NCBI GenBank assembly: GCA_046731415.1
Contig: JBKPLD010000089.1
Coordinates: forward strand, 1 to 51,509
Direction of reading: 5' to 3'
From: Verrucomicrobiota bacterium
GTDB taxonomy: Bacteria > Verrucomicrobiota > Verrucomicrobiia > Chthoniobacterales > UBA10450
DNA: 51,509 nucleotides
Below, piece after piece: positions 9,726 to 45,216 of the stretch; positions within the stretch are counted from its first letter, which is position 1; each line of letters begins with the position of its first letter. The position numbers and the translations under genes were made by a program. Under the pieces are notes generated by a model. That model was not told the DNA's origin. It made no database searches and saw only the letters and a program-made list of their open reading frames with translations.

Positions 9726-9803
9726 AATTCTCAGTAACAAGACGTCCGTTTCGCGCGATTAAATGCAGGCGCGTAAAATTCTGCCGAAACCGAATATTAT
9801 TGT

Positions 9804-10145
9804 ATGAAGACGACCACTGTTGATCAAGCAACTGCGAATGAAACAGAAACCGGATTGAGACGATTGATTCTATTGGTTCTTCTGCTTTCAGCTCTGTTGT
9901 GGGCAGGAGGCTGTGAAGGATATTATTCTGCTTATCCTGGCTACGGCCCTTATTATGGATCCGGTCCGTATTACGCGGGGTATCCCGGCGGCGTCAGCGT
10001 CGCAGTTTACGACAGACCCTATTATGTTCGTGGCCCTGGTTACTGGTCTGGCGGCGCTTATTACGTTTGGAAGCCTGGCCATTGGGTGTGGCGGCATGGT
10101 CAAAAAGTTTGGATTCACGGCCATTACGTTGTGCGAGGATACTAA
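9804..10145 (+). CDS. small Tyr/Gly/Pro/Trp-rich lipoprotein (YXWGXW-repeat type)
   Basis: 113-aa ORF with a lipobox-like 'LLSALLWAGGC'. The mature part is YYSAYPGYGPYYGSGPYYAGYPGG...YYVWKPGHWVWRHGQKVWIHGHYV. Confidence 0.6.
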   Translation: MKTTTVDQATANETETGLRRLILLVLLLSALLWAGGCEGYYSAYPGYGPYYGSGPYYAGYPGGVSVAVYDRPYYVRGPGYWSGGAYYVWKPGHWVWRHGQKVWIHGHYVVRGY

Positions 10146-10181
10146 GCTCTTTCTCTGCAGGGGGGAGGGTGCCTGGGCGCG

Positions 10182-10775
10182 CTACCAAGCCGTGCCCAGT
10201 CCACCTAACAGACCGAGAAAAGCGCCGACAAGCATTTCCGAAAGATCATGGCGCTTCAGATAAAGGCGCGACCAGAAGACCAGCAGGGCCAGTCCGAACG
10301 CTACCGTCCCAGCGACCGGATTAACCACGAACAGGATGATTGCGCTATAGAAAGCAAAAAGCGCGTGCAACGACAACTTGATCCGAAAATTGATCACTGC
10401 AGCGATAATCAGCAACAGCAGCGTTATCATCGCGCCGTGCAATGCGAACGCCGGCGGGCGCAATAGCAAGAGGACAATCACGGCCGCCGTCGAAATTGAA
10501 ATTGCCCATGGATAAAATCGGACGCGTTCAGCGTGGATGGAAACGTCCGGATCGCTCCACCGACCTGATTGGCATCCGCGAAAAAGCAATAGTGCCATCG
10601 GCAAAATCACTGTCACCAACAGAGTCAGCAAAAGCGCCAGACCTGCACGATTAGCGAGGCGCAACGCAATGATAATGGCCACGGAAAGAGTGATGAAAAC
10701 CAGCGGATGTCCAACCCAGGAGACCCATCGCGCAAACACAACAGTCGGCCTGGGATCGATCTTGTCGCGATTCAC
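10182..10775 (-). CDS. polytopic membrane protein, PAP2-like (acid phosphatase superfamily) candidate
   Basis: 197-aa ORF with about 6 hydrophobic helices. 'KLSLHALF' and 'SRLYLKRHDLSEMLVGAFLG' resemble PAP2 motifs C2/C3, though the last acidic residue is shifted. The GTG start overlaps the fahA stop (GTGA). Confidence 0.45.
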   Translation of the reverse strand: MNRDKIDPRPTVVFARWVSWVGHPLVFITLSVAIIIALRLANRAGLALLLTLLVTVILPMALLLFRGCQSGRWSDPDVSIHAERVRFYPWAISISTAAVIVLLLLRPPAFALHGAMITLLLLIIAAVINFRIKLSLHALFAFYSAIILFVVNPVAGTVAFGLALLVFWSRLYLKRHDLSEMLVGAFLGLLGGLGTAW

Positions 10776-12040
10776 TTGTCACTTTTACTTCCCATGATGC
10801 GCCCGCTTACTTCGCCAAAGCCGACTCGATAGCCGTCACCCTGACACCAGCCAGTGATGGTCAATCGGTCACCGTCTTCGAGCCATTTGCGCGTTTCATC
10901 ATTTGGAAGCTTTAACGGATTCGCGCCGCGCCACGTCAGCTCTAACATGCAACCGCGCGATTCTTCAGTTGCTCCGCTGATTGTTCCGCTGGCTAGCAGA
11001 TCGCCGGGTTGCAAATTGCAGCCGTTAATCGTGTGATGAGCGAGTTGTTGGGTAATGCTCCAGTAAAGATTTTGAAAATTGGTGCGCGTGATGACGTGCG
11101 CCGCCTTCATTGATGATGTTTGCAAGCTCGCTTCGAGTTCAATGTCGAACGTGAAATCGTCCTTTGTTCGCAGGTATGGCATCGGTTTGGGATTCTGCGC
11201 CGGCAGCGGTTTTCGGAAAGGCTCGAGCGCCTCCAATGTCACCACCCATGGTGAGATGCTGGTGCAAAAATTCTTCGCCAGGAACGGACCAAGCGGCTGG
11301 TACTCCCATGCCTGAATGTCGCGCGCACTCCAATCGTTCATTAGAACCAAGCCAAAGATATGGTCGAACGCGCGATCAATCGGCACCGGTTCGCCCAACG
11401 AATTTCCCGGGCCGATCAGGAACGCCATTTCCAGCTCGTAGTCGAGGCTCTTTGTCGGACCGAAAGTGGGTGCCGACGCATCGGGTGGCTTGACCTGCCC
11501 TTGTGGCCGACGCACATCGGTGCCGCTGATTACAACTGAACTGGCGCGTCCGTGATACGCTACAGGCAACCATTTCCAATTTGGCATCAGCGCGTTTTCC
11601 GGCCCACGCAACATTGAGCCGACGTTGTGCGCATGGTGATACGACGAATAGAAATCAGTGTAATTCGCAATACGCACTGGCAGTTTCATGGTCACGGTCT
11701 TTTGCGCCTGAAAGACCCGCGCCCGCAGCCTGGCGTTATCACGCAGAATCGGCGTTTTAGACGAGAGAAGACGTTGAAGGACTGCGCGCGCCTTGCGCCA
11801 TGCCGGACGACCGAGCGCAAGGAACGCATTGAGCGAATCTTCTGAAAAAGGTTTTCGGCCCTGAAATTCCGGGGAGCGGAAATGGCCGAGTTCTTCGAGA
11901 ACAGAAAGATCGACGATCAAATCGCCAATGGCGACTCCAGCGCGCGGTTTGCCTCCTTTCGGCTGAAAGATGCCGAAGGGAAGATTTTGTATCGGAAAAT
12001 GCGAATCAGGCGAAACGTCGATGAATGATTTGAGTGACAT
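10772..12040 (-). CDS. fahA: fumarylacetoacetase (fumarylacetoacetate hydrolase)
   Basis: 422-aa ORF. The N-terminus 'SFIDVSPDSHFPIQNLPFGIF' and 'DYELEMAFLIGPGN' are characteristic of eukaryote-like FAH. Confidence 0.93.
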   Translation of the reverse strand: MSLKSFIDVSPDSHFPIQNLPFGIFQPKGGKPRAGVAIGDLIVDLSVLEELGHFRSPEFQGRKPFSEDSLNAFLALGRPAWRKARAVLQRLLSSKTPILRDNARLRARVFQAQKTVTMKLPVRIANYTDFYSSYHHAHNVGSMLRGPENALMPNWKWLPVAYHGRASSVVISGTDVRRPQGQVKPPDASAPTFGPTKSLDYELEMAFLIGPGNSLGEPVPIDRAFDHIFGLVLMNDWSARDIQAWEYQPLGPFLAKNFCTSISPWVVTLEALEPFRKPLPAQNPKPMPYLRTKDDFTFDIELEASLQTSSMKAAHVITRTNFQNLYWSITQQLAHHTINGCNLQPGDLLASGTISGATEESRGCMLELTWRGANPLKLPNDETRKWLEDGDRLTITGWCQGDGYRVGFGEVSGRIMGSKSDK

Positions 12041-14220: not shown

Positions 14221-15483
14221 TCACGGGAACAGGCCGCGCATCTTTTTAGCTTTAAGAACGCGCTCGACACCAATGGCCATGGCCGCTGTGCGATGAGAAA
14301 TCTTGTGCGCTTTTGCGCGTTTGATTACCTGCGCAAAGGAATGCTCCAGGATGCGGAAAAGCTTGTCAGTCACTTCCATCTCCGTCCACAGATAGGATTG
14401 CAGGCCCTGCACCCACTCAAAGTAGGAAACAATCACGCCGCCTGCGTTGCATAAAATGTCCGGGATCACAAAGATTTCGTCCCATCGCTTTTCCAAGATC
14501 AGGTCGGCTTCAGGCGTGGTTGGTCCATTGGCAGCTTCGGCGAGGATTCGGCATTTGAGTTGGCCGGCGTTCTTTCCGTTAATGACGCGATCGACTGCTG
14601 CCGGCACGAGGATGTCGCACGGCTTGGTGAGCAGTTCGTTCGGGTCGACATGATCATCCTGGGCGAAGGCCCGCAAAGTCCCCTTCTTAAAAATGTGCTG
14701 TTCGGCGGCTTGGATATCTATTCCTTTCGGGTTGTAGATCGCCGCATGTGCGTCGCTGATACCAATAACCTTGACGCCAGTCTTGTAGCCAAGGGAGAGA
14801 GCCGCCACTGAACCGACATTGCCGAATCCCTGTACGATAGCAGTGCATTTTTCGGGATCCATTTTGAGCATGTTCATTGCGCGCTCGATCAAGTAAACCA
14901 CACCGCGGCCGGTTGCCTCGCGGCGGCCTTCTGTTCCGCCGATGGCGACCGGTTTGCCGGTTACGATTTCACTCACGGAATACCCTTGATGAACCGAGTA
15001 GGTATCCATGAACCAAGCCATGACCTGCTCATTCGTACCCATGTCCGGGCCCATGATGTCGGTATGCGGTCCGACAAAGGGAATCATCTCCTGCATATAA
15101 CGTCGGGAAACCGCTTCCAACTCAGTGCGGGACAATTTCGCAGGATCCACTGCGACCCCGCCTTTCGCTCCGCCGTACGGCAAATTGGACAGCGCACATT
15201 TCCAGCTCATCCACATGGCCAGTGCGGCCGTTTCGCCCATGGAGAGAGACGGAGCGAAGCGAGTTCCTCCCTTTGTCGGGCCAAGCGTCAAATGATGTTG
15301 AACGCGGTAACCCTGGAAAGTTCTGGTGCTGCCGTCATCCATGTGCACTGGAAGGGTCACGGCAATGGCGCGTTTTGGAAACATCAAGCGCTCGCGATCG
15401 TTCTTATCGATACTCAAGTAATCGGCAATGACCTGAAATTGATCACACGCCATTCGAAACACGTCGTCGTTGTAGATACTCAT
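14221..15483 (-). CDS. Glu/Leu/Phe/Val dehydrogenase family, ~420-aa glutamate dehydrogenase type
   Basis: 420-aa ORF with 'GYRVQHHLTLGPTKGGTRF' and 'PYGGAKGGVAVDP' (catalytic Lys) and the Rossmann motif 'VQGFGNVG'. Confidence 0.92.
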   Translation of the reverse strand: MSIYNDDVFRMACDQFQVIADYLSIDKNDRERLMFPKRAIAVTLPVHMDDGSTRTFQGYRVQHHLTLGPTKGGTRFAPSLSMGETAALAMWMSWKCALSNLPYGGAKGGVAVDPAKLSRTELEAVSRRYMQEMIPFVGPHTDIMGPDMGTNEQVMAWFMDTYSVHQGYSVSEIVTGKPVAIGGTEGRREATGRGVVYLIERAMNMLKMDPEKCTAIVQGFGNVGSVAALSLGYKTGVKVIGISDAHAAIYNPKGIDIQAAEQHIFKKGTLRAFAQDDHVDPNELLTKPCDILVPAAVDRVINGKNAGQLKCRILAEAANGPTTPEADLILEKRWDEIFVIPDILCNAGGVIVSYFEWVQGLQSYLWTEMEVTDKLFRILEHSFAQVIKRAKAHKISHRTAAMAIGVERVLKAKKMRGLFP

Positions 15484-24778: not shown

Positions 24779-26065
24779 ATGAATTTCTCCATCATGACTC
24801 TTGATCAAACTCGCCCGATCCTGCCTGTTCGGCTTCTCAACGGCTGTGGCACCTTGCTGGACAAAAGCCGGATTCCGCGCACGCCCATTCGAGCAGTTGA
24901 TTTAATTGAAACGGCGAAGCGCCGTTGCGGCCTTGATGATTTTGGCGGAGGCGACTTTTTCGAAGGTCTCTCACAATTGCTGGCTTCCTGTCAGCGCGAA
25001 TCCCGACTCAACCTCGTCGGAAGAATTGTCCTGCGGGCCGATCTCATACGCACATTGTGTTCACGTTTGTTCATGCAACGGGATCGGCAGATGTATCCGA
25101 GCATCAGTCGGCAAGAAATTCGCGAACCGCTTTTCATCGTTGGTTTGCCACGCAGCGGCACGACTCTGTTGCATACCTTGCTCGCCTTGGACCCCGAACA
25201 CCGAGTCCCCCTTACCTGGGAAGTTATGACCCCATCCCCACCTACTCGCGATAATGAAAAGCGGCGAATTCAACGGGCAATCAGCAGTTGTAATTGCTTC
25301 AACTGGCTGGCACCCACGTTTCACCACGCCCACCCAGTTGGCGCAGAGCTTCCGCAAGAGTGTGTCAGTCTCATGGCACCGACGTTCATGAGTGATCAGT
25401 TCGATGCGATGTACTATGTCCCTTCGTATCGGAGCTGGTTCTTTCGCCAGGATTTGCGACCGGCTTACGAATATCACCGCCGTTTCCTTCAACATCTGCA
25501 AGTTCGGCAGCGCGCGCCGCGTTGGGTGCTCAAAGCCCCCACGCATATGTTCGCCCTGCCAAGTCTGCTGACTGTCTATCCTGACGCGCTTTTTATCCAG
25601 ACCCACCGAGCACCGCTCGATGCCATGGCTTCGGTATCCAGTTTGATAACGATTCTCCGCCGCGTGTTTAGCGATGCAGTCGATCCATTCACAGTTTGCC
25701 GCGAGGCAATCGATTACTGGTCGAAAACACTGGATAGATTCTTGCAGGATCGAGATGGATTGGGAGAGCAGCGCATTTGCGACGTAAATTATGTTGAGAT
25801 CCGTCGTGATCCTCTCGCGGCGTTACGGCGTATTTACGCGCACTTCGGTTGGTCGTTGTGCCAGAAAGTAGAACAACGGATGCGCCGGGCGCTGGCAAGC
25901 CAGCCCGAGGATCGACATAGGCTTCATCGGTACGATCTCTCACAGTTTGGCGTACACGAGGCAGAAAGCGCTGCTCGATTTGCAGCGTATTGCGATCGGT
26001 TTGGCCTGGCCGCAGGCAGGAAACGTACATCTGACGCGGAAGCGGAAGAGTTACTTAAGATGTAA
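24779..26065 (+). CDS. sulfotransferase-family protein (PAPS-dependent type)
   Basis: 428-aa ORF. 'FIVGLPRSGTTLLHTLL' matches the 5'-phosphosulfate-binding loop of sulfotransferases. Confidence 0.78.
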   Translation: MNFSIMTLDQTRPILPVRLLNGCGTLLDKSRIPRTPIRAVDLIETAKRRCGLDDFGGGDFFEGLSQLLASCQRESRLNLVGRIVLRADLIRTLCSRLFMQRDRQMYPSISRQEIREPLFIVGLPRSGTTLLHTLLALDPEHRVPLTWEVMTPSPPTRDNEKRRIQRAISSCNCFNWLAPTFHHAHPVGAELPQECVSLMAPTFMSDQFDAMYYVPSYRSWFFRQDLRPAYEYHRRFLQHLQVRQRAPRWVLKAPTHMFALPSLLTVYPDALFIQTHRAPLDAMASVSSLITILRRVFSDAVDPFTVCREAIDYWSKTLDRFLQDRDGLGEQRICDVNYVEIRRDPLAALRRIYAHFGWSLCQKVEQRMRRALASQPEDRHRLHRYDLSQFGVHEAESAARFAAYCDRFGLAAGRKRTSDAEAEELLKM

Positions 26066-26167
26066 CCACAGCAACTCGATTTCCGAGTTTCCAGACACAC
26101 TGGAATTACGCCGCAGTCTTATAAGAAGGGTTTGCCGGAGCTACTGGCATGAGGAAACTTCGCTGAC

Positions 26168-26488
26168 ATGACCTTTGAAGTGCGTCGTGTGATTACGGCC
26201 GATCACCCCAGCTTGCCGGGACATTTCCCAGATGCGCCTCTCGTACCAGGCGTATTGATCCTTGATGAAGTTCTCGCAGCGTTGCGTGTTTGGCAGGACG
26301 ACTATGAGCTAACTGCGATCCGGACGGTGAAGTTTTTGCATCCATTAAAACCTGGACAGCAGTTTACGATCTGTCTTTCCGCGAACAATAATGAAGCGAG
26401 TGAAATCAATTTTTCTTGCCGCATCGAAGGGCGCGTGATCGTTGAGGGCCAACTTGAAGTTTCGTGCAGGACCAAGGTGACTTCGTGA
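26168..26488 (+). CDS. hotdog-fold (3R)-hydroxyacyl-ACP dehydratase, ApeI-like
   Basis: 106-aa ORF with 'ADHPSLPGHFPDAPLVPGVLILDEV', a FabZ/ApeI-type active-site His context. Confidence 0.7.
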   Translation: MTFEVRRVITADHPSLPGHFPDAPLVPGVLILDEVLAALRVWQDDYELTAIRTVKFLHPLKPGQQFTICLSANNNEASEINFSCRIEGRVIVEGQLEVSCRTKVTS

Positions 26489-27702
26489 ACACACCACTTT
26501 CCGACGCGCAGACCTTCAAGGTACAGCCGAGCGATCCGCGCCTGGCTGAATACCTGAAGGAATATCCAGCGCCGGTATTTAGTGAACGACTCTATCAAAG
26601 CATCGAGCTGATAGAGGCTTATAGCGTCGAAATCGCTATCGATCTGGCCTGCCAGTTGAAGTTGGTCGATTACCTCAGCCAGTGGCAATCGGTCGATGAC
26701 TTATGTCGTCTCCTTTCGTTTCAGCCCTCCTTCAAGTTCGCATTACATTGGATCCTCGAACGTCTGGTCGGAATCGATTGCGTCGAGGCACGGAGCGACG
26801 GGGATACTCGCTGTTATCGTCTTCGGCGTTCGTTGCGGAAACCGAATCTTGAAAACCTGCGTGCAGCAGCTCTGCAAACCGATCCTGCGAACGCGGCAAC
26901 TTTGGATCTGCTGGATCACGCCGCGAACCTCTATCCAGTTATCGCCAACGGGGAACAAAGCGGTGATCGCAATTTGCTGGGACCACAGGGGGTGCCGCTG
27001 TGGCTGAATTATTTTAACAACGACAATTCAACTTATGCAGTAAACAACTGGGTCGGCGCGGCACTCGCCGCACACCGCGTCTCCAATCGACGCGCGTTTC
27101 GAATTTTGGAAGTCGGCGCCGGCCCCGGCAGCGCCACCGAAATTTTGCTGCGCTTGTTTGAGGAGCGGGGACTTTTGCCACGAGTGGAACGTTATCTCGT
27201 CACAGAGCCGAACGCGTTTTTCCTGCGATGCGGCCAACGCAAGCTCGCAAGACAGTATCCTGGTCTTCCGCTCGAATGGGGCACACTCAACCTTGATTTG
27301 CCGTGGAGTACTCAAGGTATCAACCCGGGTGAATTCGACCTGGTATACGCCGTTAACGTGATGCACATATCCAAAGATCTCTTGTTTAGCTTGAATGAAG
27401 CGCGTTCGGCTTTAGCGAGTGACGGCTGGCTCGTGATCGGGGAATGTCTGCGCCCCTATTTCAATCAACCAATCTATCCCGAACTGATGTTTCAGATCCT
27501 TGAGAGTTTCATAAACGTCCAGACCGACCCTGAGATTCGCCCGAACCCCGGCTTTCTCACTGCAGAACATTGGCGGCGTGCGTTTGCTCGCGCAGGTTTT
27601 CAGCGCGTCGAAGTCGCGCCGGAGATCGATCGCATTCGCGAAATTTATCCACATTTCTTCACCGGCGGGATTTGCGGGCAAAACATCATTTCTGACAAAT
27701 GA
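26464..27702 (+). CDS. SAM-dependent methyltransferase with an N-terminal winged-helix/dimerisation-like domain (ApeB-like)
   Basis: 412-aa ORF with motif I 'RILEVGAGPGSATE'. The start is GTG at 26464 or GTG at 26485 (GTGA overlap with the upstream stop). Confidence 0.75.
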   Translation: MQDQGDFVNTPLSDAQTFKVQPSDPRLAEYLKEYPAPVFSERLYQSIELIEAYSVEIAIDLACQLKLVDYLSQWQSVDDLCRLLSFQPSFKFALHWILERLVGIDCVEARSDGDTRCYRLRRSLRKPNLENLRAAALQTDPANAATLDLLDHAANLYPVIANGEQSGDRNLLGPQGVPLWLNYFNNDNSTYAVNNWVGAALAAHRVSNRRAFRILEVGAGPGSATEILLRLFEERGLLPRVERYLVTEPNAFFLRCGQRKLARQYPGLPLEWGTLNLDLPWSTQGINPGEFDLVYAVNVMHISKDLLFSLNEARSALASDGWLVIGECLRPYFNQPIYPELMFQILESFINVQTDPEIRPNPGFLTAEHWRRAFARAGFQRVEVAPEIDRIREIYPHFFTGGICGQNIISDK

Positions 27703-28619
27703 CCTCGGACGTTCTCGAGCCAAAATCATCGGAGACCGTGCATTGGACGGGCTTGCCAGAACGCGGCACAGCGGCTTCGCTGCGGTCACTCGGTTGGATC
27801 GCGACGCACATCGGACGTTGGGCGGCAAGGCTCCTGTTATATCCGATTACATTTTATTTTGTAATTACGGCAGGCGCAGCTCGTCGGACGTCGTACGAAT
27901 ATTTCAAGCAAATGCGCGGCCACCCGGCGCGCTGGTGGCATGTATTTCGTCATTTTCATTGCTTCGCGGCGACAATTCTGGATCGCGTTTACCTGTTGCG
28001 CGGTGAGTTCGATCGCTTTGACGTAAAGCTTCACGGCAAAGAAATGCTTCACCGCCGAGTGGATAGCGGAAAGGGCTGCGTTCTATTAGGCTCACATTTG
28101 GGCAGTTTCGAGGTATTGCGAGCGCTTGGAGTAATGCAGCGAAACTTTCCACTCAAGGTTTTAATGGATGCAAACCACAACCAAAACGTCACCCGTTTTC
28201 TGGACGCACTGAACCCGCTGGTCGCAAGCACCGTAATAGCCCCAGATCGGGTGGACACGTTGCTGACCGTTAAGGAAAGTTTGGACGCGGGGTTCTTCGT
28301 CGGCACGTTGGGCGACCGCGTGTCGAGTGGCGATAAGACAACTCGCTGTCAATTCCTTGGCCGCCAAGCGGCGTTCCCGGTTGGGCCAATTGTGCTTGCT
28401 GCCATGACGCATTGTCCTGTTATTTTGTTTTTCGGTCTCTACCGCGGCGGGAATCGTTACGAAATTTACTTCGAACATTTTGCCGAGGAGATCACATTGG
28501 ATCGCGATCGCAGGGCTGAGGAGATCCAGCTATGGATGCAACGTTACGCCGAGCGCTTGGAGCATTACGCGCGCACTGCGCCTTATAATTGGTTTAATTT
28601 CTATCCATTTTGGGATTAG
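27699..28619 (+). CDS. LpxL/HtrB-type (lysophospholipid) acyltransferase (ApeD-like)
   Basis: 306-aa ORF with an N-terminal TM segment and 'GKGCVLLGSHLGSFEV' (an H-x4-D/E acyltransferase motif). It has an ATGA overlap with the upstream methyltransferase. Confidence 0.72.
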   Translation: MTSDVLEPKSSETVHWTGLPERGTAASLRSLGWIATHIGRWAARLLLYPITFYFVITAGAARRTSYEYFKQMRGHPARWWHVFRHFHCFAATILDRVYLLRGEFDRFDVKLHGKEMLHRRVDSGKGCVLLGSHLGSFEVLRALGVMQRNFPLKVLMDANHNQNVTRFLDALNPLVASTVIAPDRVDTLLTVKESLDAGFFVGTLGDRVSSGDKTTRCQFLGRQAAFPVGPIVLAAMTHCPVILFFGLYRGGNRYEIYFEHFAEEITLDRDRRAEEIQLWMQRYAERLEHYARTAPYNWFNFYPFWD

Positions 28620-28661
28620 GTCTGCCGTGCAGATGCCGAAGTAAGCTGCAAGCGCGAAGCA

Positions 28662-29105
28662 ATGCGTAACGAACCGCCGATCAACAAAGCAGAAATTCGC
28701 AAGCTAATCCCCCACTCCGGTACCATGTGTTTGTTGGATGAGGTAACTCAGTGGGATGATCGATCGATTACCTGTGTGAGTAATACTCACCGTGACCGCT
28801 CTAATCCATTGCGTCGCGACGGACGATTATCTGCTCTGCACGCTTTCGAATACGGCGCGCAAGCGGCAGCAGTCCACGGCGGATTGCGAGCGCGTTCCGT
28901 GGGCGCAATCGCGCCACCTGGCTATTTGGCTGCCTTGCGCGACGCGCGCTTACATGTGGCGTCCCTGGACGACATCCAGAGCGCGCTACAAGTACACGCT
29001 GTGCGCTTATTCGGAGACCGCGTCAATTGTGTCTATGAATGTCGCGTCTCTGCGCGCGATAGGCCTCTAGCCGAAGGCCGAGTTACAATCGTCGAGCGCC
29101 AATGA
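28662..29105 (+). CDS. hotdog-fold dehydratase, ApeP-like
   Basis: 147-aa ORF with 'LIPHSGTMCLLDEVTQWDD...ALHAFEYGAQAAAVHG', typical of the ApeP-type dehydratase family. Confidence 0.68.
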   Translation: MRNEPPINKAEIRKLIPHSGTMCLLDEVTQWDDRSITCVSNTHRDRSNPLRRDGRLSALHAFEYGAQAAAVHGGLRARSVGAIAPPGYLAALRDARLHVASLDDIQSALQVHAVRLFGDRVNCVYECRVSARDRPLAEGRVTIVERQ

Positions 29106-29107
29106 AT

Positions 29108-29197
29108 CTGCTGTAGCGCCGCTCTGCGAGCGCTGACATAACATTTAGCGTCACCGTTGCGTTGCATTACGGCGGTCATAGACCGCCGCTACAGCAG
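29108..29197. repeat. palindromic intergenic element, family B (90 bp)
   Basis: The sequence is ctgctgtagcgccgctctgcgagcgc...cggcggtcatagaccgccgctacagcag. It lies between the convergent ApeP-like gene and fabG. Confidence 0.8.
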
Positions 29198-29199
29198 TC

Positions 29200-29943
29200 T
29201 CACATCACAATCCCGCCATCTACGCACAAAACCTGCCCGGTGATATAACCACCTTCACCAGACGCAAGAAATGCCACTGCGCTGGCGATGTCTTCAGGCG
29301 TCCCTGTTTTGCCGAGTGGAATTTTTGATTGAATGGTATTTTTAATCTCGTCGGAAAGTCCGGCAGTCATGTCCGTCGTAATAAATCCCGGAGCCACAGC
29401 GTTGACGGTGATATTGCGGCTCGCAAGCTCGCGGGCAAGCGACTTGGTAAGACCGATCAAGCCCGCTTTGCTGGCCGCATAATTTGTTTGCCCTGCATTG
29501 CCCATCAAACCGATGACTGAACTGATGTTGATGATGCGACCGCTGCGCTGCTTGATCATGACGCGAATGATTGCCTGCGCAAAGCTAAATGCGCCGCGCA
29601 AATTCGTGTTAAGAACTGAATCCCAATCCTCGAGCGACATTCGCATGGCAAGCACGTCGCGCGTTACACCGGCGTTGTTAACCAGAATGTCGGTCCGGCC
29701 AAAATCCTCGAGAATACGGGCACCGATTTTTTGGACTGCAGCGTGATCCGCAACATCGACCGTGTAGGCCTTCGCCGCATCAGCACGAACTGCGTTGATT
29801 TGATCAGCGATCTTCTTTGCGTTTGCTTCCGTGCGGCTCACGCATGCCACTCGCGCTCCGTCGTTCGCCAGCCGCAACGCGATGGCTTGTCCAATTCCCC
29901 GACCCGCTCCGGTAACGATCGCAACTTGATTCTCAAATCTCAT
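29200..29943 (-). CDS. fabG: 3-oxoacyl-[ACP] reductase
   Basis: 247-aa SDR with 'VAIVTGAGRGIGQAIA', 'NNAGV' and the 'YAASKAG' catalytic Tyr-x3-Lys. The length and C-terminus 'GGYITGQVLCVDGGIVM' are FabG-like. Confidence 0.9.
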   Translation of the reverse strand: MRFENQVAIVTGAGRGIGQAIALRLANDGARVACVSRTEANAKKIADQINAVRADAAKAYTVDVADHAAVQKIGARILEDFGRTDILVNNAGVTRDVLAMRMSLEDWDSVLNTNLRGAFSFAQAIIRVMIKQRSGRIINISSVIGLMGNAGQTNYAASKAGLIGLTKSLARELASRNITVNAVAPGFITTDMTAGLSDEIKNTIQSKIPLGKTGTPEDIASAVAFLASGEGGYITGQVLCVDGGIVM

Positions 29944-38602: not shown

Positions 38603-38671
38603 GAAAAGGGAATCATTCTTGCCCCCTCGGCAAACGAGTCATAGGTTACTTATATTTTCCGGAGGTTGCCG

Positions 38672-40474
38672 ATGAAATCTCAAGGCGGTATCAGCTATAG
38701 CAACGCGGCGGTCGCTGCTTGTCCTAAACATTTGCTCCAATTCGCAGTCGATCAGCGATACGACGATTACACATCGGTCGACCATGCGGTCTGGCGATTC
38801 ATCATGCGCCAGAACATTTTTTTCCTGAAGGAATACGCCCACAAGGTTTATTTCCAGGGTCTTCTCAACACGGGCATTTCGTTCGAGCGCATCCCGCGTA
38901 TCGAAGAAATGAACGATATCCTGGCGAAAATCGATTGGGGCGCGGTGGCAGTAGACGGTTTCATTCCGCCGGCGGCGTTCATGGAGTTTCAAGCCTATAA
39001 GGTGCTCGTGATCGCCTGCGACATGCGGCAAATACATCACATCGAATACACGCCTGCGCCGGACATTGTACACGAAGCCGCAGGCCACGCTCCAATCATT
39101 GTCGATCGTGAATACTCAAATTATTTGCAGCGCTTCGGTGAAGTGGGCGCGAAAGCAATGTCGTCCAGGAAAGATTTCGAGCTGTACCAAGCGATCCGCC
39201 ACTTATCGATCTTGAAGGAGCGCCCGAATGTCGATCCGAAGGAACTCGATGAAGCAACCAAACTGGTGGAACATCGCCAGAAAAATCTCGGCGAACCCTC
39301 GGAGATGGCGCTACTCTCCCGTTTGCACTGGTGGACCGTCGAATATGGGCTCATCGGTACGCTCGAGAATCCAAAAATTTACGGCGCTGGTCTGCTTTCC
39401 TCGATCGGTGAATCGGTCTCGTGCCTCGAACCTGAGGTAAAGAAAATCCCCTACTCTATCGACGCTCAGAACTACGCGTTCGATATCACTACGAGGCAAC
39501 CCCAGCTTTTCGTCTGCCGCGATTTTCAGCATCTCAAGGACGTTCTTGAAGAATTTGCCAGCAAGATGGCGTTCAAAGTTGGCGGACTCGAAGGCATCAA
39601 CAAAGCCGTTGAATGTAATAACACCGCGACCTGTGAATATTCATCCGGTCTCCAGGTCAGCGGGATTTTCACCGAGGTTATCACGGACGAAAATAATTCT
39701 CCCATTTATTTGCGCACAACGGGCAAGACCGCGCTGGCGTTCCAAAGCAAAGAACTCGAAGGGCACGGTATTGATTATCACAAGGACGGTTTTGGTTCGC
39801 CAGTCGGCAAATGGAAACAAACCTCAACGGCGCCAAAGGCGCTCACCAACGATCAACTGCACGCGCTTGGGATTGTCGAGGGTAAGAAAGCGAAGATTGA
39901 GTTTGTCAGCGGCGTAGTTGTGTCAGGAAAGGTTGAGAAAATTTTGCGAGGCGACGGGAAACTGTTGTTGATCACATTCTCAAACTGCAAGGCCAAGTAC
40001 CGTGACCAAGTCCTCTTCCAGCCCGAGTGGGGTGTTTACGACATGGCCGTTGGCGAACGAATCAGTTCGGTATTTAACGGAGCAGCAGATAAGGACGCCT
40101 ACAATCAGGTGGCGCTCGTTCCAAAGGAACGCACCATCAAGATTCCTTCTACGCCGGAGCGCGAGCGACTCGAGAATCTTTACGCTCAGGTCCGCAAGAT
40201 TCGCGAGAGCAAAACCGGTTATGAACGGCTTGGCGAAATTTGGGAGACACAGCAAGCCGAACATCCCGAAGACTGGCTGTTGTCGATGGAAATTTTTGAA
40301 ATCCTCGACACAACCGACCAACAGCCGGAATTGAAAGCCAGGATCGAGAAGTTTCTGAACGAGAAAAAATCGAAGAGCAAAGATCTGGCGACGCTGATCA
40401 GTTGGGGGTTCCGCCTGGTGAAATACCATAAGAAGCCGGAATACCAGTCTGCGTTGCACGGCTCGTCGAAATAG
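38672..40474 (+). CDS. phhA: aromatic amino acid hydroxylase (phenylalanine-4-hydroxylase-like), long form with a ~300-aa C-terminal extension
   Basis: ATG 38672 is preceded by GGAGG (38661-38665). It has 'PDIVHEAAGHAPII' (2-His iron ligands), 'HWWTVEYGLIG' (Glu ligand) and 'IYGAGLLSSIGES'. Residues ~300-600 have no family I recognise. Confidence 0.8.
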   Translation: MKSQGGISYSNAAVAACPKHLLQFAVDQRYDDYTSVDHAVWRFIMRQNIFFLKEYAHKVYFQGLLNTGISFERIPRIEEMNDILAKIDWGAVAVDGFIPPAAFMEFQAYKVLVIACDMRQIHHIEYTPAPDIVHEAAGHAPIIVDREYSNYLQRFGEVGAKAMSSRKDFELYQAIRHLSILKERPNVDPKELDEATKLVEHRQKNLGEPSEMALLSRLHWWTVEYGLIGTLENPKIYGAGLLSSIGESVSCLEPEVKKIPYSIDAQNYAFDITTRQPQLFVCRDFQHLKDVLEEFASKMAFKVGGLEGINKAVECNNTATCEYSSGLQVSGIFTEVITDENNSPIYLRTTGKTALAFQSKELEGHGIDYHKDGFGSPVGKWKQTSTAPKALTNDQLHALGIVEGKKAKIEFVSGVVVSGKVEKILRGDGKLLLITFSNCKAKYRDQVLFQPEWGVYDMAVGERISSVFNGAADKDAYNQVALVPKERTIKIPSTPERERLENLYAQVRKIRESKTGYERLGEIWETQQAEHPEDWLLSMEIFEILDTTDQQPELKARIEKFLNEKKSKSKDLATLISWGFRLVKYHKKPEYQSALHGSSK

Positions 40475-40545
40475 TTTGAGCAGCGCCGCGGCGCCACCGG
40501 AATTTGTGATGTCGAGCCATCTCTGGTCCTAGTTTTTAAGAGTTA

Positions 40546-40584
40546 GAGATTCCTCGACTTCACCGGGTTCCGCTCGGGAACGAC
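40546..40584. repeat. family A terminal-repeat remnant (inverted orientation)
   Basis: The sequence is gagattcctcgacttcaccgggttccgctcgggaacgac. A weak partner 'gtgatgtcgagccatctc' lies at ~40506-40523. Confidence 0.45.
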
Positions 40585-40615
40585 AGGCGGACTAGGCGTG
40601 GTTTAGTTTCGCTCG

Positions 40616-41956
40616 TTACTTCCCGACGACTAGACTTGAACCGTAAGCTCCGGATAGCTTTCCGCTTCGCGCAAAGTCGCGCATCATGACGAAGTAGCCC
40701 GGCGCATACCGCGTTGAAACACGCTCACCATTTGGGGCGACTTCGTACTCGGTCATTCCATGCTCGGCGTGAGGAAATAGTGCGAGCGTGATTGGTTTCC
40801 CTTCCGTAATCAGGATCCTGACGCGGCGGCTGGTCTCAGCGCTGGTCGCTTCGAGATCGTCCTCTCCGAGAATCCACAACTGTGGGGCTTTGACGGAGCG
40901 AAGCGTTGGCATGGGATCATAACGGAATGGCGTTCCCCAGATGAACTCCTTGCCCTTCTCTCGAAGCTCAGCTTCGGAGTACGGCAAAAAGAAGTGTGTA
41001 TAATTGCCATGCAGGTCTTTGTACCAAGGTTCATGTCGGTACTTGGCTCTTATAGCATCGAAACGTTCGAAGCCGTTGGTGAAATTGCTCTCGAATATCG
41101 CTTCGGCCGCGGATGCTACCTCCAGCGCTTTGGAAATTTCTTCCTGAGTATGACCTTTGAGGCGCATCTCAAGCGCAACCTCCTCTTGGTCTTCATCGAT
41201 GACGGAGACGGCCAGACCGAAGCTAACAATAACGAAATCGACCGGCGCGCGTGTCGCAGCGAGTGGCGCGACCCATCCGCCCTGGCTGCCGCCTTGATAT
41301 CCGATCCTGCCGCAGCGCGTACCCGCGATTCGCTTTGCTTCTCGCATCGCAGCGACGGCGTCATCTGCGAGTGTATCGAAATCCTGCGTGTATTTGCCTC
41401 CCGAGCCACCGGTCCCGCGCTTGTCATAAACAAAGACGCCGACGTTCTCGGCCGGTAACAGTCGTTGGAGCGCGTAGGATTCGCGCGCAGGTTCTCGTTC
41501 CGCTCCGTGAATGAGAACCACGATCGGAACCGGGTTTTCGCCTTTAGGCAGCACTAGTCGGCCAGCAAGCTTAATTCCGCCACGACCCTCAAACACTGTG
41601 TCAGTCACATCGAACGGGATCCGGGACGCCTTTTTGCCGTCGAATTGAATCCCACCCTTCGCACAGGTGGTGAACGACGCGGTATGACCGTCTGGATGAT
41701 CCGTCCACCCCAGCGTGCTTGTCCACGAGCCGTCGTGCGCCTGGTGCAAAACGCCGGTCGTCCCATCGAATTTACGCCAACGAAATGTTTTGTCTTCAGA
41801 TGGTGCGATGTCGACGATTCCTCCGTCCGGAAAGCGGTAAGCGCCTGCTTGGCAATCATCGCCGGTGCTTTCCGTCGCAAGAGCACCGCCGAAAGAGGCT
41901 GAGAGACTGAAAATGACAAACCCAAACAACAAGAAGTGAACCTTGAAACAATGCAT
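40616..41956 (-). CDS. secreted alpha/beta hydrolase (S9 peptidase / dienelactone-hydrolase-like)
   Basis: 446-aa ORF with a signal peptide, the nucleophile elbow 'IGYQGGSQGGW' and a C-terminal 'FPHAEHGM' (catalytic His context). Confidence 0.72.
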   Translation of the reverse strand: MHCFKVHFLLFGFVIFSLSASFGGALATESTGDDCQAGAYRFPDGGIVDIAPSEDKTFRWRKFDGTTGVLHQAHDGSWTSTLGWTDHPDGHTASFTTCAKGGIQFDGKKASRIPFDVTDTVFEGRGGIKLAGRLVLPKGENPVPIVVLIHGAEREPARESYALQRLLPAENVGVFVYDKRGTGGSGGKYTQDFDTLADDAVAAMREAKRIAGTRCGRIGYQGGSQGGWVAPLAATRAPVDFVIVSFGLAVSVIDEDQEEVALEMRLKGHTQEEISKALEVASAAEAIFESNFTNGFERFDAIRAKYRHEPWYKDLHGNYTHFFLPYSEAELREKGKEFIWGTPFRYDPMPTLRSVKAPQLWILGEDDLEATSAETSRRVRILITEGKPITLALFPHAEHGMTEYEVAPNGERVSTRYAPGYFVMMRDFARSGKLSGAYGSSLVVGK

Positions 41957-42066
41957 TTCCCTTTATGATGCAATCTGGTCCTGTTCCAGATTCGAAAATT
42001 CGCGACAACAGGATGAATGATCGCGATGGGCCACGCCAAAAACTCAGGTGAGATAGAGCGCGACTT

Positions 42067-42915
42067 TTAGATTCTTTCGTCTTTGAAGTGCCGTTTGCCT
42101 TTCAGCGCCTTTGCGTATTCGTCCTTGCTCAGAATATTCTCATCGAGTTGCATGTCGGTGCGAAGAAAGTTTTGGAACCAATTTTCGATTCGCTGTCGAT
42201 CTTTGAGCACTTCCTCCGTAATGTAATTGGCGTCGATGTTAATGCAGATTGCGCCAACGATTCCGAATTCTTTTCGTTTGATTGGAATCGTGGTGCATTT
42301 GAATTTTCGCGCTCCGATGTTCAGCTCGTAATTCAATTTGTCTTCGTTCAACAGCTGTCGGCGTTTGAGATCAATTAGCAGATTCGTTGTACCATCGCGT
42401 AAATGGCGCCCCGTGACATTGTTTTCGAGCGTGATCAACGAGTGCGCCGGATCTGCCAGGTTGTGTAGCAAAATCTCGATTCCGGTATTCGGAAACGATT
42501 TCCCAATCAAACGCACAATCCGCGCGTAGTTTTCGAGAAATTCCTGTGTGTCGTCGGCGATCGTTTTGCCGTCGTATTTCTCGAACAACTGCGCGTAAAC
42601 CTTTTGTTCAGCTGGTTCGAGTTGTGCGCGCACGTTATTTTGTTCTCCGATGAAAATGAGCTGCCGTGCGGCGGTGTGATCCCGGTTCTTGAGGAAGTAA
42701 TGCATGCCCAACCGAAAATCTTTCAGGCTGAATTCTCCGAAGTTTTCGCGCGTGACCGTGAATGGATAGAAGTCGTAATCTTCCAGATTCCGGCCAAATT
42801 TGCGGCGTTGTTCCTTGTACTTGCCCCAAACAAACCCTATCGTCAGAAAGAGCACCGACACAATGATCGACGCGACGACGTTGACGCTGAGTTCGCTTTG
42901 CAGGGCTTTGATCAT
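42067..42915 (-). CDS. membrane-anchored YheO-like PAS-domain protein (candidate sensor/regulator)
   Basis: 282-aa ORF with the N-terminal TM 'VVASIIVSVLFLTIGFVW'. 'EILLHNLADPAHSLITLENNVTGRHLRDGTTNL' and 'GIVGAICINID' resemble the YheO-type PAS domain (from memory). I saw no obvious C-terminal HTH. Confidence 0.5.
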   Translation of the reverse strand: MIKALQSELSVNVVASIIVSVLFLTIGFVWGKYKEQRRKFGRNLEDYDFYPFTVTRENFGEFSLKDFRLGMHYFLKNRDHTAARQLIFIGEQNNVRAQLEPAEQKVYAQLFEKYDGKTIADDTQEFLENYARIVRLIGKSFPNTGIEILLHNLADPAHSLITLENNVTGRHLRDGTTNLLIDLKRRQLLNEDKLNYELNIGARKFKCTTIPIKRKEFGIVGAICINIDANYITEEVLKDRQRIENWFQNFLRTDMQLDENILSKDEYAKALKGKRHFKDERI

Positions 42916-42937
42916 GGGAAAAACATTTTCGGTGCCG

Positions 42938-43018
42938 CTCTAGCCATCGGTCTGCAGCCGATGCCTGCCTGGAACGCAGTCCTTAGCGAAAATGGCTCAC
43001 AGAGCTGTGGCTACAACG
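42938..43018. repeat. degenerate family B element (reverse orientation)
   Basis: The sequence is ctctagccatcggtctgcagccgatgcc...ggctcacagagctgtggctacaacg. Its reverse complement aligns with ctgtagcggcgctctatgagcgcc...cggtcacagaccgccgctacag. Confidence 0.5.
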
Positions 43019-43043
43019 TACTGCTGACGCCGAGACTAACGGG

Positions 43044-43736
43044 TTACAGATTTCCGGCCAAGCTGGAAATACTGATATTCTCCAGTGTAACGGCTGCGGG
43101 ACGAGAGAGCGCGTATGCCACGGCACTGGCGACATCCTCTGGCGAGATCATCTTATGTCTAGGCCATTTCCCTTCGATCTGAGTCCAGATGTCGGTGTCT
43201 GTCGCGGCGGGGTAAACGTTAATCACTCGTATCTTGCGGTCGCGCAATTCTTCGCGCACGCATTGCGAGAATCCTTCAAGCGCGAATTTGCTCATGCAAT
43301 AAGCGCTCCAGTTGGCGAACCCAGTCTTCGCCGCGATGGAAAGTATGTTGACGACGCTGGAGCCAGGCGGCATCGCCGGGGCAAGGTGCTGCATTAACAT
43401 AAACGGCGCGGTGATATTGACTCCCACCGTTTGCTCCCATTCAACCGCTGTGATTTCACAAAAGGGCTTCACGACCGCGATGCCTGCATTGTTAACGAGC
43501 AGATCCACGGGCTTCGTTCCAACCTGCTCAATGAGGTCGGAAACACCGGACGGGACAGCAAGGTCATGGATCAGGCGAACCACACGCCCGCAATGCTGCT
43601 TCACTGCATTGCAAACGTCGGCTAAAGCAACGGTATCGCGTCCGTGGAGAAGCAATTCGACATTCGGTGCCGCCAGTTTCTCGGCAATTGCGCGACCAAT
43701 TCCGCGACTCGCCCCGGTGATTAGATAGCGTGTCAT
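43044..43736 (-). CDS. short-chain dehydrogenase/reductase; by context a candidate sepiapterin reductase or dihydropteridine reductase
   Basis: 230-aa ORF with 'LITGASRGIGRAIAEKL', 'NNAGI' and 'YCMSKFA' (Tyr-x3-Lys). The pterin role is inferred only from the neighbouring genes. Confidence 0.8.
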   Translation of the reverse strand: MTRYLITGASRGIGRAIAEKLAAPNVELLLHGRDTVALADVCNAVKQHCGRVVRLIHDLAVPSGVSDLIEQVGTKPVDLLVNNAGIAVVKPFCEITAVEWEQTVGVNITAPFMLMQHLAPAMPPGSSVVNILSIAAKTGFANWSAYCMSKFALEGFSQCVREELRDRKIRVINVYPAATDTDIWTQIEGKWPRHKMISPEDVASAVAYALSRPAAVTLENISISSLAGNL

Positions 43737-43799
43737 AAAAATTGCCAGAGCGCGACGGTCACTCGACCCTGAGCTCGTGGCCGAAGGGCCGGGCGCGCC

Positions 43800-43820
43800 G
43801 GACGGCTCGGCGAGCCGTCC
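43800..43820 (-). terminator. perfect 9-bp stem / 3-nt loop hairpin (ggacggctc-ggc-gagccgtcc) just downstream of the PTPS gene
   Basis: Read directly from the sequence. There is no U-tract, and the GGACGG...CCGTCC stem motif recurs in the family C repeats. Confidence 0.3.
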
Positions 43821-43831
43821 CTATCATTGCG

Positions 43832-45043
43832 TTACATTCGCCGCAAGGTAAACCGGTTATTGGCTGTTTCCCATAAGCGCAGCCTAACGAGTTGTTGATT
43901 CACGCGATTGTCGATCTTCGGCCAGAGCGCGCGGACGATGTTCTCCCCGGTCGAAGGCGCCTTGCGGAAATCTTCTGTTTCCAGATCGAGATGCCGATCC
44001 CGCCACGGTTCCAACGATTTCTGTATGGCGTTCCTCAACGCAACAAAATCGTAGAGCGTTCCGCTGCGCTCATCGTAGTCGCCGCCGATTGTAGTTTCCG
44101 TCAGATAACCATGGCCATGACCCAGCGGATTGTTGCACTTGCCATAAAGCTTTGCGTTTTCGGCATCCGACAGAGTCGCGGCGTACAAACGGTGTGCAGC
44201 ATAAAATCCCATCTGCATTCCAAGAAACACCCTTCCGTTCTTCCAAACCTCGGCAAAAAAATCTGCGCGCTCGTGCAGGCGCACGCGATCCAGCAGCGCC
44301 ATCGAGCTCGCACGTTGGTAGATGTAACCCGCCAAACTCTCCGTCGTGATGGGACGGTTGGCCAAACCAGCTACATCGTCATTGAGATAACGGTGGTCAA
44401 GCTCGTCGGTTAAACGACGCAAACAAGCATCGATCGCGTCGTAACGGACCAGCGGTTGGACAGTGAAGGCTTTCGCCGATCGGTAGGTCAGTCGAACGCG
44501 ATAATTATGCCCGTGAATGGAAGTGGCCGATCCAAACATACGCGCGTTTTCATCAGCGTTTAACCGGGGCGACATCGTTTTGCGTGCCGCTGAAAATTCG
44601 AACCAGTAATTCGCCTCGCAGGCGCCGTTGGAGTAAAAAGTCGCGCTACGCTCGGGCGACTCAGTCAGATGACAGGCAACGAGCTTAGCATTGTCGTCGG
44701 AAAACGAAGAGGCAACATCGACATACAGTTGCTGCGCGATATTTTCGGCGGTCGGAGGAACGTCACGGAAGGAAGGATTGTCTTCGTTCAGGAACTTGTG
44801 ATCAAATCGCTGCCGCACAATTTTGCCGGCACGCTCCTTGATTTCGCTGATGTTAATCAGCATTCCCGTATTCGAATCAACGGGACCGGCGAACACAAAA
44901 TAGGCTGCGAAATTGCGACCGCTCCCGTGGCGCGCGTTCGTTTCGGGACCAAAGGCGGCCAGATTTTCGTTGTCGCTCCACTGGGCGACATGCAAGCGGC
45001 GAGAAGCCGAAAATTCGAGACGCTTGCTGACTGTCAGGAGCAT
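43832..45043 (-). CDS. 6-pyruvoyl-tetrahydropterin synthase family protein with three tandem PTPS/T-fold repeats
   Basis: 403-aa ORF with three ~134-aa repeats. Repeat 1 has FSASRRL...FGPETNARHGSGRNF...DHKFLNED...TAEN. Repeat 2 has FSAARK...FGSATSIHGHNY...DHRYLNDD...TTES. Repeat 3 has FYAAHRLY...YGKCNNPLGHGHGY...RDRHLDLE...TGEN. Confidence 0.8.
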   Translation of the reverse strand: MLLTVSKRLEFSASRRLHVAQWSDNENLAAFGPETNARHGSGRNFAAYFVFAGPVDSNTGMLINISEIKERAGKIVRQRFDHKFLNEDNPSFRDVPPTAENIAQQLYVDVASSFSDDNAKLVACHLTESPERSATFYSNGACEANYWFEFSAARKTMSPRLNADENARMFGSATSIHGHNYRVRLTYRSAKAFTVQPLVRYDAIDACLRRLTDELDHRYLNDDVAGLANRPITTESLAGYIYQRASSMALLDRVRLHERADFFAEVWKNGRVFLGMQMGFYAAHRLYAATLSDAENAKLYGKCNNPLGHGHGYLTETTIGGDYDERSGTLYDFVALRNAIQKSLEPWRDRHLDLETEDFRKAPSTGENIVRALWPKIDNRVNQQLVRLRLWETANNRFTLRRM

Positions 45044-45082
45044 GATTCAGCAAACACGTTGCTGGTCATTGCGCAACTTATC

Positions 45083-45216
45083 GGAAGTCAGGCATCTTGT
45101 CGCCAGAGGACGCGTTTGCCGTGGCGAACCTGACTGGACGGGCGGCATCTTGCCGTCCATGATATTTCGACAAGCGAGCCGCTTGTTACCCAAAACAGGC
45201 TAGAAGCATGTCTTCC
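45083..45216 (+). repeat. family C structured repeat, copy 1 (134 bp)
   Basis: The sequence is ggaagtcaggcatcttgtcg...gtggcgaacctgactggacgggcggcatcttgccgtccat...ctagaagcatgtcttcc. Its first ~78 nt are ~85% identical to copy 2 and the last ~17 nt are shared. Confidence 0.8.

Follow-up and report, generated by a model that had tools for sequence, protein, structure and literature searches.

Can the enzymes that modify and attach the chains of aryl-polyene (APE) pathways serve a bacterium at a locus where those that build the chains are missing? The question is raised by a 51.5-kb stretch of DNA (hereafter, the window) from Candidatus Udaeobacter (Chthoniobacterales, Verrucomicrobiota), which is among the most abundant soil bacterial groups, is uncultured, and has a streamlined genome. 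The window carries a cassette of genes for two hotdog proteins (HD1 and HD2), a methyltransferase (MT) and an acyltransferase (AT), in the order HD1-MT-AT-HD2, with a sulfotransferase (ST) gene upstream and a housekeeping fabG beside it. Comparative analysis of the sequences favours, at a probability of about 0.5, a pathway in which these enzymes would act in trans to methylate, reduce and dehydrate a chain bound to an acyl carrier protein (ACP), and would then transfer it to an envelope lipid. Because only four tailoring genes remain beside an ordinary fatty-acid reductase, the product of the Udaeobacter cassette is probably a modified membrane lipid. No description of a reduced, FabG-linked cassette of this kind was found in the literature searched. 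The features of the locus are as follows.

24779-26065, plus strand: ST, a Stf-type 3′-phosphoadenosine 5′-phosphosulfate (PAPS) sulfotransferase of 428 aa (Pfam Sulfotransfer_3, solved-structure matches).
26124-26167, plus strand: conserved element of about 40 nt, GGTTTGCCGGAGCTACTGGCATGAGGAAACTTCGCTGAC, directly 5′ of HD1; candidate promoter or leader.
26168-26488, plus strand: HD1, an ApeI-like short hotdog dehydratase subunit with the catalytic His, 106 aa (matches to ApeI, FabZ and 6qsr_A).
26485-27702, plus strand: MT, a predicted stand-alone C-methyltransferase (C-MT) of the polyketide synthase (PKS) type, 405 aa (CurJ C-MT matches); an alternative GTG at 26464 would give 412 aa.
27699-28619, plus strand: AT, an LpxL/LPLAT-family acyltransferase of 306 aa (ApeJ C-terminal AT domain, Lip_A_acyltrans).
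28662-29105, plus strand: HD2, an ApeP-like hotdog subunit of 147 aa (6qsr_B, Pfam ApeP-like).
29106-29199, no strand: structured convergent spacer between HD2 and fabG (folding energy versus shuffles).
29200-29943, minus strand: FabG, a canonical 3-oxoacyl-ACP reductase of 247 aa (TIGR01830).

The six open reading frames (ORFs) lie exactly where the first-pass annotation of this DNA had placed them, on the same strands, and its family assignments were largely upheld by profile searches. It had also described overlaps of 25 nt between HD1 and MT and 4 nt between MT and AT. The second (ATGA) is real, while the first hinges on the choice of start codon. Most orthologues of the MT are called at 405 aa, so the start is most likely the GTG at 26485, which leaves a 4-nt overlap with HD1 (GTGA).

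Related loci were collected by a genome scan with a 12-sequence MT alignment, taking one genome per species, which gave 80 loci and about 75 Chthoniobacterales species genomes. The window proteins and all Ape proteins were then mapped onto the recovered loci, over about 10 kb around the cassette. The reference APE cluster was ape of E. coli CFT073, and all 18 of its proteins were compared with the window by tblastn. The closest loci carry the names Candidatus Udaeobacter, Chthoniobacterales or Verrucomicrobiota, and their contigs are up to 4.0 Mb long.

The MT falls in the Pfam family Methyltransf_12 and is matched by phmmer to the C-MT of CurJ (PDB 5thy, E = 4.6e-23); its other solved relatives by sequence are AprA MT2, DszA/DisA C-MT, PsoF, citrinin CMeT and LovB. 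An AlphaFold model made with 40 homologues as input had a pLDDT of 96. Foldseek returned 5thy (E = 1e-23, TM 0.75-0.80 over 388 columns), and the other top matches were AprA MT2, DszA C-MT, citrinin CMeT, PsoF and the trans-methyltransferase CalH (PDB 7dmb). The agreement in fold extends over the whole length, covering both the N-terminal helical lid and the class I S-adenosylmethionine (SAM)-dependent methyltransferase core (TM 0.60-0.80 across matches). Residues H294 and E320 align to the 'NVLH' and 'E' of CurJ, which form a His-Glu dyad whose role has been described (PMC9821293), and these two residues, like the SAM motif E209-G211-G213, do not vary among 82 sequences. BLASTP between the MT and E. 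coli ApeB gave no match at E 10. By sequence and predicted structure, the MT is a full-length PKS-type C-MT and is not ApeB-like. The family is large, with more than 1,400 close relatives in metagenomes.

In four loci of one Chthoniobacterales clade (L048, at 9494-11218, L049, L058 and L059), and in P0130, HD1 is fused in frame to the MT, and independent hotdog-MT and MT-hotdog fusions occur in other lineages (P0130, P0248). The HD1-MT fusions argue that the two proteins act on the same carrier-bound intermediate.

The hotdog proteins were assigned from profiles, solved structures and catalytic residues. HD1 scored 29.7 bits for FabA and 25.6 bits for ApeI-like (Pfam gathering score 28.5), and HD2 scored 20.8 bits for Pfam ApeP-like (E = 3e-4; gathering score 27); orthologues of the two proteins carry unmarked precomputed ApeI-like and ApeP-like matches. 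HD1 is 37% identical to E. coli ApeI (E = 4e-8) and finds FabZ and ApeI (6qsr_A) among solved structures, and the best such match of HD2 is ApeP (6qsr_B, E = 1e-4). Their closest solved relatives are chains A and B of one entry, 6qsr, which we take to be the Xenorhabdus ApeI:ApeP complex. When both hotdog types are aligned with FabZ, H19 of HD1 falls at the position of FabZ His54. ApeI-like proteins keep this His and have Asp at the position of the Glu. In ApeP-like proteins, HD2 included, the His is replaced by Arg or Asn and the catalytic Glu is kept; HD2 itself has R at the His54 position and E63 at the position of FabZ Glu68, as does E. coli ApeP. Among orthologues, H13, H19 and E34 of HD1 are invariant (62 sequences), as is E63 of HD2 (56 sequences). 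ApeI and ApeP form a heterodimer with a single active site (PMC8041823), the residue pattern of which (a His confined to the ApeI-type subunit and a Glu in the ApeP-type one) is found in HD1 and HD2. Because their His/Glu split agrees with this published pattern, the putative HD1 + HD2 pair matches the ApeI/ApeP type and bears the signature of a heterodimer with one active site.

The AT scored 29.8 bits for Pfam Lip_A_acyltrans (PF03279; cut-off 22.3) and is 32% identical, over 308 aa, to residues 246-549 of E. coli ApeJ (E = 1e-43), a protein in which a glycosyltransferase is fused to an acyltransferase. The motif H133-x4-E138 is invariant in 71 orthologues. No match to ApeD was obtained in the comparison with all 18 E. 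coli Ape proteins, and the predicted counterpart of the AT is the C-terminal acyltransferase domain of ApeJ, not ApeD. According to one proposal (bioRxiv 10.1101/2020.12.19.423268), this part of ApeJ attaches the ACP-bound chain to the GalNAc of the aryl-polyene lipid. An exact-sequence look-up with the window AT gave no existing record.

FabG passes the TIGR01830 equivalog cut-off (331 versus 297.75 bits) and is 40% identical to E. coli ApeQ. The FabG of L048 scores similarly (333), whereas the ketoreductase (KR) in the proteobacterial cluster of L080 scores 255, under the cut-off; the full-cluster KR of the proteobacteria belongs to a separate FabG subtype, described by a different FabG model. 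The fabG gene adjoins the cassette in 57 of 68 informative loci, and the two stay together in at least three unrelated genomic contexts. These are msrA-ST-cassette-fabG-uppS; a fused E1/E2 2-oxoacid dehydrogenase gene followed by the cassette, fabG and holB; and a halogenase-halogenase-fabG operon beside AT-HD2-HD1MT. The persistence of this adjacency across contexts is the chief reason for supposing that the cassette cooperates with the enzymes of fatty-acid synthesis.

In genomes of the second context, a 1104-aa 2-oxoacid dehydrogenase is encoded directly upstream of HD1 (L031:6338-9652, also in the L039/L060 clade), a single chain in which E1 alpha, E1 beta, a lipoyl domain and the E2 catalytic domain are fused. 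In L048 (4879-7982, minus strand) and L028 (11096-13927, minus strand), two genes for CmlS/QhpG-like flavin halogenases or monooxygenases form an operon with fabG beside the cassette, and a gene of the same family is present in a proteobacterial full cluster (L076:11368-12798, minus strand). The spacer between HD2 and the convergent fabG (29106-29199), at the 3′ boundary of the cassette, is strongly structured, with a minimum free energy of -46.8 kcal/mol (z = -4.8), with 0 of 200 shuffles folding as well. It has no U tract, and it looks like a bidirectional terminator.

The same four genes occur inside full clusters in metagenome-assembled genomes (MAGs) labelled Gammaproteobacteria, Competibacteraceae and Rhodospirillales (L076, L080, L073), the MT being 46-57% identical to the window protein, the AT about 60% and HD2 59-74%. 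Other genes of these clusters encode an AMP-ligase, ACP, polysaccharide deacetylase, LolA-like protein, MMPL exporter, ketosynthase (KS), chain-length factor (CLF), KR and flavin halogenase-like protein, a parts list that agrees with that of the arcuflavin cluster, which is of the xanthomonadin type and comes from Azoarcus (PMC3949708). The native order, ligase-ApeI-AT-LolA-MMPL-KS-CLF-ApeP-KR, is seen in a related cluster that lacks the PKS-type MT. In the MT tree, L073, which has a ligase and an ACP, is sister to the whole Chthoniobacterales clade. Since the same genes occur inside complete gammaproteobacterial clusters, the Udaeobacter cassette reads as a putative reduced derivative of a type II PKS cluster of the xanthomonadin/APE type, with the flanks and the middle removed. 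The locus retains an ApeI + ApeP dehydratase pair plus an LpxL-family AT, a combination that such clusters contain. The first-pass annotation had assigned the genes to the APE/xanthomonadin tailoring set, and they do belong to it, but the AT is not ApeD, the MT is not ApeB and fabG is not the cluster-type KR.

None of the KS, CLF, ACP, adenylating enzyme, thioesterase, LolA and MMPL genes was found in the 51.5-kb window, either by tblastn with the 18 Ape proteins or with an ACP profile, in agreement with what had been noted from the sequence earlier. ApeO, ApeR and ApeC gave no tblastn match in the window at E 0.01 (the rest of the genome was not searched), and neither the window nor the Chthoniobacterales loci gave a match to ApeH, ApeL or ApeM. 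The profile, built from 7 ACPs, likewise found nothing in the window or the Chthoniobacterales loci, and matched only the proteobacterial loci L073, L076, L089 and L090; the aryl-acid ligase and LolA/MMPL genes are all present in L076, L080 and L089. An assembly artefact was rejected as the cause, as orthologous loci are embedded hundreds of kb deep in contigs of 1.2-4.0 Mb; the absence of KS and ACP at the locus is therefore not due to assembly.

The partners could instead be encoded elsewhere in the Udaeobacter genome, in which case KS/CLF, ACP, ligase and exporter would together with the cassette make a true aryl-polyene pigment lipid. A precedent exists in the arcuflavin cluster of Azoarcus, which has a similar parts list and is split over two distant loci (PMC3949708). 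Halogenase-like genes of the family seen in the L076 full cluster also stand beside the cassette in L028 and L048. The local evidence points the other way: no KS, CLF, ACP, ligase or exporter such as MMPL is encoded in the roughly 10 kb around the cassette in any Chthoniobacterales locus, that is, in about 75 species genomes and several rearranged contexts, and the linked KR is of the housekeeping FabG type, not the cluster type. The antiSMASH rule for aryl polyenes requires an APE-type KS. Among the antiSMASH regions of the Udaeobacter AEW3 MAG are an 'arylpolyene' region (16% gene similarity), placed somewhere in the genome, and a 'ladderane' region (8%) (PMC7343977). No KS lies within 20 kb of the cassette, so the call would favour a second locus, but it could be a fatty-acid synthase (FAS) locus instead. 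A homologue search with the KS of L076 returned only homologues of 68-80% identity, with named sources that are almost all Gammaproteobacteria. For the ligase of L073, the named top matches among the 120 best homologues are Gammaproteobacteria, mostly of the Competibacteraceae type, and a recurrent group of 448-aa ligases from soil, the one group opened, belongs to an ordinary proteobacterial xanthomonadin-type cluster; the ligase results count weakly against a split cluster. Taken together, the KS and ligase searches are uninformative or weakly negative and leave room for an unlinked partner locus in Udaeobacter. A split cluster is considered possible but rather doubtful.

HD1-MT is kept in all recovered loci, and AT-HD2 and FabG in most. 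The full HD1-MT-AT-HD2 set persists throughout the Chthoniobacterales, at identities as low as about 54%; in one clade the genes run AT-HD2-HD1-MT, with an in-frame fusion of HD1 and MT. In L063, L066, L067 and L077, the genes for ST, HD1 and MT are present, and the 7-10 kb downstream contain no AT-HD2; since these loci keep HD1-MT without AT-HD2 close by, the cassette is separable into two halves. All six genes have dN/dS values of 0.05-0.26, i.e., they are under purifying selection, and the catalytic residues of every enzyme are invariant among orthologues. It would be tempting to see in a locus that has lost most genes of the ancestral pathway the decaying, now functionless remnant of a horizontally acquired pigment cluster. 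This is very improbable, given ORFs that are intact in about 75 species genomes down to 54% identity, a dN/dS of 0.08-0.26 with unchanged catalytic residues, and the maintenance of translational coupling and gene fusions. Because the cassette is kept under purifying selection across the order, in a streamlined genome, it likely matters for the cell envelope.

The first-pass annotation had included the ST gene in the module and had proposed a sulfated and/or methylated acyl lipid as its product. The ST scores 149.5 bits for Pfam Sulfotransfer_3 (PF13469; E = 2e-43) and matches the solved structures 2zq5 (E = 2e-58) and 2z6v (E = 2e-42), which are presumably mycobacterial Stf1 and Stf9, of a family linked to sulfated cell-envelope lipids. 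Its PAPS-binding loop (P124, R125, G127, T128) and the residues R277 and S285 are conserved, with a dN/dS of 0.11-0.17 for the gene. That ST and the four downstream genes form one operon for a sulfated, methylated acyl lipid is compatible with this relationship and with the purifying selection on ST, as well as with the 102-nt gap between ST and HD1, in which no terminator is predicted. It also fits the position of ST, which precedes the cassette in the same orientation in 46 of 60 informative loci (18/18 in the close Udaeobacter clade, 11/16 in the intermediate group and 17/26 in the most distant).

Against a single operon, the remaining 14 informative loci keep the cassette and have no ST, and in the MT+AT tree they are scattered over several separate cassette clades, so that ST is not co-conserved with the cassette. 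In the fetched loci, ST was seen only beside msrA, and there was none where the cassette and fabG occupy another context; none was found in the proteobacterial full clusters. In 10 genomes, a conserved gene on the opposite strand separates ST from HD1. Its product is about 211 aa long, with a hydrophobic N-terminus and no Pfam family (e.g., L063:9003-9674, minus strand). The gene is carried by L053, L054, L063, L066, L067, L068, L070, L074, L077, L079 and L081; in L070 it sits between msrA and HD1.

The spacer upstream of HD1 bears on the same point. While most of it is variable and rich in indels, the element at 26124-26167 is nearly invariant in 19 Udaeobacter sequences and is still recognisable in the ST-less loci L028, L060 and L042. 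It has no Rfam match. A possible promoter layout within it is TTGC, about 17 nt, then GAAACT; scans of the locus for consensus promoters and terminators gave sites no more frequent than in shuffled sequence, and no public RNA runs holding the locus were found. Because the element is conserved with or without ST, it suggests that the cassette has its own promoter or leader. The idea of ST as an integral member of one unit with the downstream genes was therefore not sustained, and a common operon for a sulfated lipid is judged distinctly unlikely. ST is a genuine Stf-type enzyme and a facultative neighbour, not a core part of the cassette. At most, it decorates the same lipid in those lineages that have it.

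The data show the homologies, the catalytic residues, the synteny, the purifying selection, the gene fusions, the lack of KS and ACP at the locus and the variable occurrence of ST. The scheme that these findings support best is one for which we infer the substrates, the order of steps, the acceptor and the source of the chain. In the first step, the PKS-type MT would C-methylate an ACP-bound 3-oxoacyl chain at C2, in trans. FabG would then reduce the methylated chain, and the ApeI/ApeP-type heterodimer would dehydrate it, using one active site made up of His19 of HD1 and Glu63 of HD2. Finally, the ApeJ-type AT would take the completed chain off the ACP and attach it to a hydroxyl group on a lipid or glycolipid of the envelope. 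The cassette would thus supply, in trans, the post-ketosynthase steps of a PKS module plus the off-loading step. The chain would most likely come from the housekeeping FAS II (AcpP, FabF), the alternative being unlinked KS and ACP genes.

Several observations weigh against this scheme. The chemistry given to the MT is drawn from homology only, and for xanthomonadin-type pathways it has been suggested that a methyltransferase acts on the aryl head group, by O-methylation (PMC3949708), although L073, L080 and L083 have a separate methyltransferase of the UbiE type that could carry out that O-methylation. In other lineages the MT family stands alone, or beside an acyltransferase, a deacetylase and a glycosyltransferase, without hotdog genes, and its target could therefore differ from 3-oxoacyl-ACP. 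For example, the family member in L086 adjoins genes for Lip_A_acyltrans, a polysaccharide deacetylase and a family 2 glycosyltransferase (GT2), and distant members in L087, L091 (7657-11227) and L092 stand alone, divergent from folE, a GWxTD-domain gene and a gene for a fabH-type 3-oxoacyl-ACP synthase III (KAS III). The Pfam scores of both hotdog proteins lie under the gathering thresholds, the AEW3 genome has the 'arylpolyene' call described above, and in four loci HD1-MT has no AT-HD2 in its vicinity. A dialkylresorcinol identity (DarA/DarB) was also considered for the FolE and FabH that adjoin the distant MT homologues; this was rejected, as NCBIfam identifies them as true FolE and FabH-type KAS III.

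A more specific form of the scheme can be proposed, in which the locus is a KS-less remnant of a type II PKS wired into the ordinary FAS of the most abundant verrucomicrobia in soil. The MT would methylate 3-oxoacyl-AcpP, and FabG and the ApeI/ApeP-type dehydratase would process an alpha-methyl intermediate that FabZ would handle poorly. The AT would then place the methyl-branched (or 2-methyl-2-enoyl) chain on an outer-membrane glycolipid, which in most Udaeobacter would also be sulfated by ST. This detailed version is unlikely as it stands, but if true it would constitute a new route to methyl-branched acyl lipids and provide a candidate lipid marker for Udaeobacter.

For the general scheme, the locus indicates that the 'attachment and beta-processing' half of APE pathways can persist without the half that builds the polyketide. 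To our knowledge, genome mining with KS-based rules would overlook loci of this kind. Should the chain indeed come from FAS II, the cassette would offer a rare example of PKS tailoring enzymes acting in trans on primary fatty-acid intermediates, and would point to a lipid class not yet known that could be used as a biomarker.

The surroundings of the locus are housekeeping, as had been noted, with pgl and msrA upstream and uppS and purA downstream. Other window ORFs that were examined belong to ordinary metabolism (tRNA synthetases, amino-acid dehydrogenases, MurJ, msrA, pgl, uppS, purA, uppP and aromatic amino-acid catabolism), and two more encode an extracytoplasmic function (ECF) sigma factor and its anti-sigma partner. 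Genes for aromatic amino-acid breakdown and pterin recycling occur on both sides of the locus (38666-50909 and 10772-12040). They encode an unusually long biopterin-dependent hydroxylase (602 aa), a 403-aa protein with three 6-pyruvoyl-tetrahydropterin synthase (PTPS) stretches, a short-chain dehydrogenase/reductase (SDR), a homogentisate-dioxygenase-like protein, 4-hydroxyphenylpyruvate dioxygenase (HPPD) and fumarylacetoacetase. Two paralogous amino-acid dehydrogenases of the Glu/Leu/Phe/Val type are encoded within 6 kb (8346-9725, plus strand; 14221-15483, minus strand).

Among known systems, the xanthomonadin and arcuflavin clusters (Xanthomonas pig; Azoarcus arcM-arcV and arcA-arcL; L076, L080, L073 and L089) share the ApeI-like dehydratase, the ApeP-like dehydratase and the LpxL-family AT with the window. 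L073, L076, L080, L082 and L083 also have the same PKS-type MT, and the cluster proteins are 46-74% identical to those of the window. The adjacencies ApeI-AT and ApeP-KR are native to clusters of this type, and halogenase-like genes accompany both them and some of the cassette loci. Unlike the Udaeobacter locus, xanthomonadin-type clusters encode a ligase for aryl acids, KS and CLF, a dedicated ACP, a KR subtype of their own, LolA/MMPL for export, and a polysaccharide deacetylase or glycosyltransferase. They often add a UbiE-type methyltransferase and an XanB2 chorismatase, both absent from the Udaeobacter locus, and they have no ST.

The APE clusters of E. coli CFT073 and Xenorhabdus doucetiae (apeA-apeR) offer counterparts for four of the proteins: ApeI for HD1, the C-terminal domain of ApeJ for AT, ApeQ for FabG and ApeP for HD2. 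The window MT is unrelated to ApeB at the BLAST level, the AT is without the GT2 half of ApeJ, and there are no counterparts in the window of ApeC/O/R, ApeE/F, ApeH, ApeK, ApeL/M/N or ApeG. With the C-MTs of PKS systems (CurJ, AprA MT2, DszA, citrinin CMeT, PsoF and CalH), the window MT has the whole fold and the His-Glu dyad in common; PsoF and CalH are comparable to it in that they are stand-alone and act in trans. Unlike these enzymes, the window MT adjoins hotdog subunits and a lipid AT, with no PKS or KS partner at the locus. AmxMT1, a stand-alone enzyme of the C-MT fold that is encoded in an anammox FAS II gene cluster and binds ACP (PMC9821293), can be likened to the MT from its description, not its sequence. 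Mycobacterial sulfolipids differ in the families that build and transfer the chain (the mycobacterial ones being PKS and PapA), and ST is not co-conserved with the cassette here. The resemblance to their logic, as an analogy only, is that a Stf homologue, chemistry that would form methyl branches and a lipid AT are combined in Udaeobacter as well.

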